Source: Escherichia coli
Lineage (GTDB): Bacteria; Pseudomonadota; Gammaproteobacteria; Enterobacterales; Enterobacteriaceae
Assembly: GCF_041886205.1 (NCBI RefSeq)
Contig: NZ_CP169029.1
Direction: 5' to 3' (one strand)
Length of the DNA stretch: 64,000 nucleotides
Positions 61,563-64,000 of the stretch are shown piece after piece. The notes under the pieces were generated by a model, which saw only the letters and a program-made list of their open reading frames with translations, searched no databases and was not told the origin of the DNA. The translations under genes and the position numbers were made by a program. The first letter of the stretch is position 1, and every line of letters starts with the position of its first letter.

Positions 61563-62324
61563 TTACCGCCACATCGCGTGTTTATCGCGATAGCAATCGA
61601 CCCACATCGCCGTCGCGCCACAAACGGCAACGGGCATGATGAACAGATTAAGCAGAGGGATCATCGTAAACAGGCTGGTTAAAGCACCAAACTGCATATT
61701 GGTGATTTTGCGTGTGCGCAGGGCGGTGCGCATCTCTTTAAACGGCACTTTGTGGTTATCGAAGGGGTAATCGCAATACTGGATGGCTAACATCCAGGCG
61801 CTAAACAGGAACCACAGTACCGGCGCGACGGTTTGCCCAATACCAGGGATGAAGTAAAGAATTAGTAATACAATTGCGCGCGGCAGATACCAGGCAAATT
61901 TTTGCCATTCGCGTTTCATGATTCGCGGCACATCTTTCATGATACCGAAAATCCCGGTATCTGGCGGTGTAGCGCCAGTCAATCGTGCTTCCAGTTGTTC
62001 AGCCAATAAACCGTTAAACGGAGCGGCAATCCAGTTAGCAATCGTGGAGAAGAAATAGCCAAACACTAACAGCACAGAGATGACAGCCAGAGGCCACAAC
62101 AGATAGCTCAGCCATTGTAACCAGTCCGGAACATAACTCATGAGAGTCGGGATCCAGACATCGAGTTGCGTAAAGAGCCACCAGAATGCGCCCCCCATCA
62201 ACAAAATATTGACCAGCAGCGGTAAAATAACGAAACGCCGAATCCCAGGTTGCGAGACGAGCTTCCAGCCTTGCGCAAAATAGTAAAAACCGCTGCGTGG
62301 GGCAGATGTGAATGATGAAACCAT
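61563..62324 (-). CDS. cysZ: Sulfate transporter CysZ
   Basis: 253 aa polytopic membrane protein; recognised CysZ. Confidence 0.92.
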
Positions 62325-62553
62325 AATCAGGATGAGCTCCTTTTGACCAATCCCAGGAAAATTCTGCGTATTTTACCGGGTAATTGCGCAATGGACAGTT
62401 AGGATATGTTCGAAAAAACAGCAAAAAGCACGATTTCATCTATCTTTGTGCTGTGAAAGTTAATAGTGCACTTGCACTTGAGGTAATCGGCAAATACTCT
62501 TAGTGAGTAAATGTTTGCCGTGGTGGCAAGGTGTTAGAACAACAGAGAATATA

Positions 62554-63540
62554 ATGATGCAGGATTTGCGTCTGATATTAATCATTGTTGGCGCGATCGC
62601 CATAATCGCTTTACTGGTACATGGTTTCTGGACCAGCCGTAAAGAACGATCTTCTATGTTCCGCGATCGGCCATTAAAACGAATGAAGTCAAAACGTGAC
62701 GACGATTCTTATGACGAGGATGTCGAAGATGATGAGGGCGTTGGTGAGGTTCGAGTTCACCGCGTGAATCATGCCCCGGCTAACGCCCAGGAGCATGAGG
62801 CTGCTCGTCCGTCGCCGCAACACCAGTACCAACCGCCTTATGCGTCTGCCCAGCCGCGTCAACCGGTCCAGCAGCCGCCTGAAGCGCAGGTACCGCCGCA
62901 ACATGCTCCGCGTCCAGCGCAGCCGGTGCAGCAGCCTGCCTATCAGCCGCAGCCTGAACAGCCGTTGCAGCAGCCAGTTTCGCCACAGGTCGCATCAGCG
63001 CCGCAGCCAGTGCATTCAGCACCGCAACCGGCACAACAGGCTTTCCAGCCTGCAGAACCTGTAGCGGCACCACAGCCTGAGCCTGTAGCGGAACCGGCTC
63101 CAGTTATGGATAAACCGAAGCGCAAAGAAGCGGTGGTTATCATGAACGTCGCGGCGCATCACGGTAGCGAGCTAAACGGTGAACTGCTTCTTAACAGCAT
63201 TCAACAAGCGGGCTTCATTTTTGGCGATATGAATATTTACCATCGTCATCTTAGCCCGGATGGCAGCGGCCCGGCGTTATTTAGCCTGGCGAATATGGTG
63301 AAACCGGGAACCTTTGATCCTGAAATGAAGGATTTCACTACTCCGGGTGTCACTATCTTTATGCAGGTACCGTCTTACGGTGACGAGCTGCAGAACTTCA
63401 AGCTGATGCTGCAATCTGCGCAGCATATTGCCGATGAAGTCGGCGGTGTAGTGCTTGACGATCAGCGCCGTATGATGACTCCGCAGAAATTGCGCGAGTA
63501 CCAGGACATCATCCGCGAAGTCAAAGACGCCAACGCCTGA
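62554..63540 (+). CDS. zipA: Cell division protein ZipA
   Basis: 328 aa from [26 protein letters not shown] (N-terminal TM anchor), long P/Q-rich linker, C-terminal FtsZ-binding domain; ORF track extends 17 codons upstream. Confidence 0.92.
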
Positions 63541-63570
63541 TACACTTAAGGCAAATTAACTCCTCTTCGA

Positions 63571-63594
63571 ACCCCCGCTTGTCGGGGGTTTTTA
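63571..63594 (+). terminator. Rho-independent terminator downstream of zipA
   Basis: acccccg-cttgt-cgggggt followed by TTTTT. Confidence 0.7.
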
Positions 63595-63601
63595 GCATTG
63601 A

Positions 63602-64000
<399 letters not shown>

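Follow-up and report, generated by a model that had tools for sequence, protein, structure and literature searches.

We are highly confident in one explanation for the low-complexity linker of the cell division protein ZipA in this Escherichia coli DNA: the linker is a disordered tether rich in proline and glutamine (P/Q), the open reading frames (ORFs) stacked over it arise from its nucleotide composition, and its length varies in frame through events between short direct repeats. The DNA analysed is a stretch of 64,000 nucleotides, referred to below as the window, and the features of the zipA locus within it are collected in Table 1.

The identity of the gene is clear. Its product matches the profile TIGR02205 (“cell division protein ZipA”) from end to end, covering profile positions 1-284 of 284 with E = 6e-125 and 417 bits against a cutoff of 119.65, and residues 194-317 match PF04354 (ZipA_C; E = 6.5e-46). 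The gene lies between cysZ, upstream on the minus strand, and ligA, downstream on the plus strand, and this order, an enterobacterial synteny, was kept in every locus that we fetched. In E. coli VE-T9, the annotated zipA has 100% identical DNA and carries the RefSeq label zipA. More broadly, zipA was matched in 5,425 of 5,426 complete E. coli genomes and was labelled zipA throughout among the matches listed; the identity between the window DNA and zipA was 97-99% in essentially all of these genomes. Every feature of the ZipA family that we tested was found.

Downstream of the gene, a terminator-like hairpin can be read from the sequence. A scan for promoter and terminator consensus sequences returned zero promoter-like sites and did not pick up this hairpin, probably because its stem can reach into the T run. 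An Rfam scan of positions 62200-63700 at E ≤ 1 gave a single, sub-threshold match, to asX2 from the zipA terminator into the beginning of ligA, which we took as chance given its 27 bits against a gathering score of 70; no family was found in the linker.

Table 1. Features of the zipA locus, in window coordinates
Feature	Position	Strand	Remarks
cysZ	61563-62324	-	CysZ NF003433, E = 2.8e-135
zipA	62554-63540	+	328 aa plus stop
N-terminal transmembrane anchor, residues 7-28	62572-62637	+	Limits from PMC6904479; modelled helix at residues 2-31, pLDDT 83-95
Charged domain, residues 29-85	62638-62808	+	Limits from PMC6904479; modelled as coil, pLDDT about 50
P/Q domain, residues 86-185	62809-63108	+	Predicted disordered linker and in-frame indel site; 54% P+Q, G+C 0.65
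C-terminal FtsZ-binding domain, residues 186-328	63109-63537	+	PF04354; PDB matches; pLDDT 95-98
Exact 10-nt repeat, left copy, CGCCGCAACA	62813-62822	+	Family D7; partner 81 bp away
Exact 10-nt repeat, right copy, CGCCGCAACA	62894-62903	+	Pair bounds the 81-bp duplication (355 aa)
9-nt repeat, left copy, GCCCAGCCG	62848-62856	+	GCGCAGCCG in most alleles; partner 69 bp away
9-nt repeat, right copy, GCGCAGCCG	62917-62925	+	Joined to the left copy by the 69-bp deletion
Direct-repeat copy 1, CAACCGGTCCAGCAGCC, codes QPVQQP	62860-62876	+	Families D3/D4; left breakpoint of the 60-bp (308 aa) and 99/111-bp (295 aa) deletions
Direct-repeat copy 2, CAGCCGGTGCAGCAGCC, codes QPVQQP	62920-62936	+	Right breakpoint of the 60-bp deletion
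Site of the 12-bp indel	62925/62926	+	Inside repeat copy 2; one more GTGCAGCAACCC unit in 332-aa alleles
Direct-repeat copy 3, CAGCCGTTGCAGCAGCC, codes QPLQQP	62959-62975	+	Edge of the 39-bp unit that is present three times in the 354-aa allele; right breakpoint of the EM10-18-28 deletion
Antisense ORF, 71 aa, R/L-rich	62689-62904	-	Overlaps the left edge of 62780-63150; judged spurious
Alternative-frame ORF, 97 aa, R/S-rich	62771-63064	+	Judged spurious; not present in the homologue with 77% identity
Antisense ORF, 97 aa, A-rich, GTG start	62780-63073	-	Judged spurious
Antisense ORF, 66 aa, G/C/A-rich	62943-63143	-	Judged spurious
Antisense ORF, 48 aa	63016-63162	-	Overlaps the right edge of 62780-63150; judged spurious
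Terminator-like hairpin of zipA	63571-63593	+	ACCCCCG-CTTGT-CGGGGGT followed by a T run; read from the sequence
ligA	start 63611	+	LigA NF005932

A preliminary description of the window had singled out positions 62780-63150 as the linker. This interval corresponds to ZipA residues 76-199 and holds the whole P/Q domain; since the domain itself, by the published limits (PMC6904479), is shorter (Table 1), the interval is slightly too wide at both ends. The same source divides the protein into a transmembrane segment, a charged domain, the P/Q domain and the FtsZ-binding domain, and in a simple scan, residues 5-23 form the hydrophobic segment. Ohashi et al. (2002), as cited in PMC6904479, described the P/Q domain as an unstructured, flexible tether and provided experimental evidence for its disorder, and the authors of PMC6904479 report a more compact P/Q conformation under their own conditions. 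Our AlphaFold2 model, built on 61 homologues, shows coil without secondary structure over approximately residues 35-175, with pLDDT of about 50, and a folded domain over residues 186-328. Residues 185-328 are matched by PDB entries 1f46, 1f47 and 1f7w, and the full-length sequence is matched by 9iue. On the model's prediction, the region is the intrinsically disordered, P/Q-rich tether of ZipA.

The composition of the tether is extreme. Residues 86-185 comprise 30% proline, 24% glutamine and 16% alanine. The G+C content of the P/Q domain is 0.65, as compared with 0.49 and 0.51 in the flanking parts of the gene; it ranges from 0.63 to 0.69 in 150-nt windows over the linker, and the highest 300-nt G+C content of the entire 64 kb is found here (0.663 at 62772). 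As such, the preliminary description was right to call the linker P/Q rich, given the family and domain matches and the 54% P+Q, and right to call it G+C rich (0.65-0.66). Its term “repetitive” holds in part. Tandem Repeats Finder, run over 62500-63600 with a minimum score of 30, returned no array, and the term therefore fits only the direct repeats of 10-31 nt, which are imperfect and dispersed. Four copies coding QPVQQP or QPLQQP start at 62860, 62920, 62959 and 63025, and the start-to-start spacing of the repeats is a multiple of three in all 14 of 14 cases.

The codons of the linker, almost all of them CCN, CAR, GCN and GTN, make its DNA G+C rich and leave few stop-forming T/A combinations in the other five frames, so that long stop-free runs, and with them ORFs on both strands, arise mechanically and probably encode no proteins. 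The preliminary description counted three overlapping alternative-frame ORFs and called them spurious. The count stands if the minimum is set at 60 aa and only ORFs contained in the interval are taken; five overlap it when the minimum is lowered to 48 aa. The linker is not unique in its four-deep stack of ORFs: the same depth is reached in 23 segments that make up about 4.5% of the window.

We compared the longest stop-free runs in the alternative frames with three types of shuffle, in which we permuted synonymous codons without changing the protein, the order of codons in the linker, or the order of codons in the whole gene. The observed runs were 98, 40, 101, 71 and 107 codons, and the synonymous-codon shuffle gave means of 107, 77, 121, 65 and 113 codons for the same five frames, with no observed value in the upper tail. 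In all three shuffles, and for every alternative frame, the longest runs equalled or exceeded the observed ones, and ORF lengths are thus as composition predicts. The one marginal case is the 71-codon antisense run, which fell in the upper 3% of the linker codon-order shuffle, a weak signal given that the value carries no correction for the number of frames (five) and of shuffles (three).

This single excess is one of three observations that might favor a genuine overlapping gene within zipA, encoded by at least one of the alternative-frame ORFs (the 97-aa ORF on either strand or the 71-aa antisense ORF). The other two are that the ORFs reach 97 aa here and 135 aa in other E. coli alleles and persist across Escherichia, and that a few GenBank genomes list the exact 71-aa antisense ORF as a “hypothetical protein” (e.g., VET9_12640). 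Nevertheless, we consider such a gene extremely unlikely, because its expected traces are missing from zipA itself. The synonymous divergence (pS) between the window allele and its relatives is about the same in the P/Q part as in the FtsZ-binding part, at 0.40 and 0.44, respectively, against E. albertii, 0.37 and 0.33 against E. marmotae, 0.37 and 0.37 against P0083 (a divergent 330-aa allele labelled E. coli), and 0.68 and 0.70 against a homologue with 77% identity. Therefore, we see no added constraint on the synonymous sites of zipA.

In addition, the best-conserved of the six frames over the linker is that of zipA, with an amino acid identity of 0.84-0.87 as compared with 0.64-0.83 for the alternative translations. 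The second-best frame, which is antisense, is also second-best in the globular domain, and its rank is therefore a generic effect of codon phase. The starts and stops of the alternative ORFs are unstable, with boundaries that move between alleles and species: the antisense ORF of 71 aa takes lengths between 57 and 135 aa in E. coli alleles, with longer versions in other species, and the plus-strand ORF is lost in the 77%-identical homologue. None of the ORFs has a Pfam match, four of the five exact sequences were not found in a collection of 15 billion proteins, and the RefSeq/PGAP annotation of the fetched loci calls none of them. Neither the synonymous constraint nor the conserved alternative product of an overlapping gene was found. 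Altogether, and in agreement with the preliminary description, we read the alternative-frame ORFs as spurious by-products of G+C-rich composition that are probably not translated.

The disordered tether also varies widely in length. We searched 1.84 billion representatives exhaustively with HMMER and obtained 5,029 homologues at E ≤ 0.001. Of the 150 best, 117 carry both a hydrophobic anchor at the N-terminus and a complete C-terminal domain. In these 117 representatives, the anchor and the FtsZ-binding domain are separated by a spacer of 83 to 703 aa (median 162 aa, which is also its length in E. coli). Only the closest homologue, at 77% identity, has a spacer strongly enriched in P and Q (0.37); most other spacers have a P+Q fraction of 0.1-0.25 and are more charged. 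Variation between species, as the preliminary description had stated, is thus plain.

The preliminary description had also proposed the linker as a plausible site of in-frame indels, to be checked by alignment across strains. The alignments leave no doubt on length variation, which is larger than had been guessed. Specifically, in a sample of 40 evenly spaced ranked rows from the 5,426 complete E. coli genomes, the zipA coding sequence was 987 bp in 22, 999 bp in 17 and 888 bp in one (about 55% and 43% for the first two). The 987- and 999-bp alleles differ in having one versus two copies of a 12-bp unit, GTGCAGCA(A/G)CC(C/T), which codes QPVQ, and the 888-bp allele (295 aa) is without the segment between QPVQQP- and QPLQQP-coding repeats.

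Allele-specific queries retrieved further length classes from the complete genomes. The 930-bp allele was found in 22 genomes of human isolates, one of them labelled O25:H4; among the matches listed, the full-length alleles nearest to it include those of EC958 and JJ1887, whose SNP haplotype it shares. Human and bovine isolates with genomes of about 5.4 Mb carry the 903-bp allele (29 genomes), and the 927-bp allele was found in 3 genomes and the 888-bp allele in at least one. Where checked, the 888-, 903- and 930-bp alleles were annotated as intact zipA. Within Escherichia (E. coli, E. albertii and E. marmotae), public ZipA proteins are 300-375 aa long. In pairwise alignments of these proteins, nearly all indels are in frame and lie at residues 75-185; the acidic stretch of residues 54-56 has a few small ones as well (EDV duplicated, DED deleted), and no indels were seen in the FtsZ-binding domain. 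As expected of a flexible tether, the segment is predicted to be without stable structure and naturally changes in length and sequence in alleles annotated as intact.

The window allele itself is an example of this variation. It is separated by 4 differences from the 332-aa allele of SF-173 and by 10 from the 328-aa allele of K-12, from which its protein differs at R120/H, S148/P and V195/I, and it sits on an SF-173-like haplotype that otherwise encodes 332 aa. Judging from these haplotypes, the window allele apparently reached the 328 aa of K-12 by an independent loss or gain of the 12-bp unit.

Length differences in such DNA might be produced by sequencing or assembly errors. The linker is G+C rich with short repeats, many of the variant proteins were seen once, on a draft or metagenome contig, and two of them, P0013 and P0015, resemble frameshift errors in the transmembrane region. 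However, identical deletion alleles recur in 22, 29 and 3 independently finished complete genomes, and the 309-, 300- and 308-aa proteins are each carried on hundreds of contigs (exact proteins on 827, 484 and 371 contigs and in 1861, 599 and 478 blocks of the collection). Moreover, every deletion allele has the SNP haplotype of a full-length parent allele, and the repeats, which are imperfect and at most 31 nt long, are too short to mislead modern assemblers. We therefore regard an artefactual origin of the length differences as most improbable and treat them as real alleles of zipA.

The junctions of these alleles point to how they may have formed. Of 33 inferred single indel events, 31 lie within residues 76-190. 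The 69-bp deletion (309 aa, and also a 305-aa allele) has its breakpoints in two copies of (G)CGCAGCCG; the 60-bp deletion (308 aa) has them in QPVQQP-coding copies 1 and 2, the 84-bp deletion (300 aa) in CGCAGCC...GTGCA motifs, and the 99/111-bp deletion (295 aa) in QPVQQP- and QPLQQP-coding copies. Among the expansions, the 81-bp tandem duplication of the 355-aa allele has the exact CGCCGCAACA pair at its breakpoints, and the triplicated 39-bp unit of the 354-aa allele is bounded by (G/T)TGCAGCAGCC.

Across all events, perfect microhomology at the breakpoints averages 4.9 nt, as compared with 1.6 nt for size-matched random in-frame events placed in this DNA (Mann-Whitney p about 1e-13, which is indicative only, since the 33 events are not fully independent and the assignment of parents is approximate). 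Identity over 20 nt around the breakpoints shows the same direction, with means of 11.0 and 8.2, respectively, and several breakpoints have just 1-3 nt of perfect microhomology. With regard to history, a recurrent origin of the length variants appears supported by the SNP backgrounds: the 69-bp deletion is present on four SNP haplotypes, the 300-, 308-, 354- and 355-aa alleles have one haplotype in common, with 0-1 differences among them, and the 328-aa window allele is nearer to the 332-aa allele of SF-173 than to K-12.

From this junction anatomy, we infer a slippage mechanism. Because QPVQQP, AQP and similar motifs recur in frame, the DNA carries many short direct repeats, which are imperfect and whose spacings are multiples of three. 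Replication slippage, or illegitimate recombination at short homology, between these repeats would then delete or duplicate whole codons. Because the repeats code the same peptide in the same frame, the products of slippage would automatically be in frame, and because ZipA is essential and the tether tolerates changes in length, in-frame products would survive. The expected outcome is a series of length alleles within the species and a very wide range of spacers between species.

Real length alleles need not be neutral, and selection might act on linker length by tuning the spacing between the Z-ring and the membrane, the timing of division or the sensitivity to inhibitors that depend on ZipA; such selection would account for the fixation of deletion alleles in successful clones. 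Three observations are consistent with this. The deletion alleles are fixed in coherent groups (the 22 human isolates, and the 29 isolates of human and bovine origin), the median spacer across species equals the 162 aa of E. coli, and pN/pS in the linker is below 1. The last of these means that the composition of the linker is under some constraint: within Escherichia, pN/pS is 0.13-0.23 in the linker versus 0.01-0.09 in the FtsZ-binding domain, and over the full range of comparisons it is 0.13-0.37 versus 0.01-0.13, so that the linker evolves faster at the protein level than the FtsZ-binding domain and still below neutrality.

However, hitch-hiking of a neutral indel predicts clonal fixation equally well, lengths of 295-375 aa are all found in viable isolates, and the spacer range between species exceeds 8-fold. 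Selection on linker length is, in our judgment, unlikely, and the compound view that the tether is a recurrent hot spot of in-frame indels with non-neutral length alleles is quite unlikely. If it were true, the deletions of 23 and 28 residues that are fixed in particular groups of human and bovine isolates would alter Z-ring-to-membrane spacing, division timing or the susceptibility to the Kil protein of phage lambda. Nothing in the present data supports the adaptive reading over hitch-hiking.

The repeat-mediated length variation of the tether has practical consequences. Since the length alleles (the 12-bp unit and the 60-, 69-, 84- and 99/111-bp deletions) are recurrent, they are unreliable as phylogenetic characters, and they can disturb gene-by-gene typing schemes. 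For annotation, linkers of G+C-rich low complexity stack stop-free frames, and one antisense ORF of zipA has already entered GenBank. With regard to function, an essential division protein appears to tolerate tethers of about 67 to about 147 residues in Escherichia and a far broader span of lengths in other species, which fits the flexible-tether model, and the natural series of alleles from 295 to 375 aa is free material for testing the dependence on tether length in vivo.

In the literature, we found no paper that catalogues linker-length alleles of zipA within E. coli; papers pairing zipA with “indel” did so through a coincidence of reference lists. Such a catalogue of alleles within one species would add description without revealing a new type of phenomenon. 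Three elements are already established: the disorder of the P/Q tether, the variation of that tether between species, and in-frame indels that arise between repeats in low-complexity linkers. Our findings leave the current understanding unchanged, and their practical value is modest.

The closest known system is the ZipA of E. coli K-12 (b2412): the gene is the same, as are its synteny and its layout in four domains; its protein is 99% identical to that of the window, and its SNP haplotype differs. For the variation itself, a precedent exists in another division protein. Touzain et al. (2010; PMC2884548) described “small variable segments” in E. coli genes, with the P/Q-rich ftsK as the richest example, and attributed the variation partly to slippage between repeats of less than 30 bp. 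The P/Q-rich linker of FtsK is like that of ZipA in showing in-frame intragenic length variation in a low-complexity linker of a division protein, although the protein is a different one. The C-terminal linker of FtsZ is likewise a disordered spacer in the connection between the Z-ring and the membrane and varies between species in both length and sequence, but it belongs to a different protein and is not P/Q rich in E. coli. Finally, zipA resembles simple-sequence contingency loci in that its variation is recurrent, homoplasic and apparently mediated by repeats. In contrast to such loci, it has no homopolymer or perfect tandem array, its sole tandem unit being the 12-bp QPVQ unit in one or two copies, and the result is an in-frame change in length, not the switching of a gene.

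Across the cysZ-zipA intergenic region and the start of zipA, conservation among Escherichia species is far above that of the flanking DNA. When the Escherichia marmotae sequence is compared with the window, identity reaches 98.7% in the intergenic region and 99.2% in zipA codons 1-85, with a synonymous divergence from the window allele (pS) of 0.035, against 87-93% identity and a pS of 0.33-0.37 for the remainder of the gene. The 71 nt of cysZ adjoining the block are 96% identical. The comparisons with E. albertii and with P0083, a divergent 330-aa ZipA allele labelled E. coli, likewise find the block more conserved than its flanks, whereas no such excess is seen between the window and a 78%-identical homologue. 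This pattern could reflect a tract of interspecies recombination; it could also arise from constraint on synonymous sites, with divergent promoters or 5' mRNA features as its source.

Features in and around zipA
Feature	Position	Strand	Description
Conserved block	62325-62808		~480 bp; cysZ-zipA intergenic region and zipA codons 1-85; from cross-species identity
Acidic D/E-rich run	62713-62721	+	ZipA residues 54-56; small in-frame indels
71-aa antisense ORF	62689-62904	-	within zipA; several E. coli genomes deposited in GenBank list it as "hypothetical protein"
asX2 (Xanthomonas sRNA) Rfam match	63570-63646	-	27 bits, E=0.008; sub-threshold

The zipA allele of the window is uncommon among E. 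coli: in the search of complete genomes, identity of at least 99% was found for 16 of the 5,427 matching records, and strain VE-T9 carries the same allele at 100% identity. It has valine at residue 195, where the other alleles encode isoleucine, and a synonymous GCC at 62850 that leaves the left member of the GCGCAGCCG repeat pair (62848-62856 and 62917-62925) a weaker match. The same search gave two zipA matches on plasmid-labelled records and two copies in one genome, and zipA, an essential gene, went unmatched in one of the 5,426 complete genomes. Replicon mislabelling or assembly problems probably account for these cases.

Two further matters concern annotation. The antisense ORF is named VET9_12640, MC04F13_10360, JNE25003_23600 or VEE43_12570 in GenBank and is absent from the RefSeq annotation of VE-T9, although present in that strain's GenBank record. 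The asX2 match, whose 27 bits fall short of the gathering score of 70, overlies the hairpin of the zipA terminator together with the first bases of ligA, and is most likely due to chance.

In-frame indels also occur beyond the P/Q domain: in alignments of the acidic run, EDV is duplicated in the Escherichia protein variant P0012 and DED is deleted in P0014. Among ZipA homologues, P0202 has 874 aa, with 703 residues between the anchor and the FtsZ-binding domain. P0249 is also very long (685 aa), and its FtsZ-binding domain is placed discordantly, from residue 218 in one alignment and at residues 477-671 in another.
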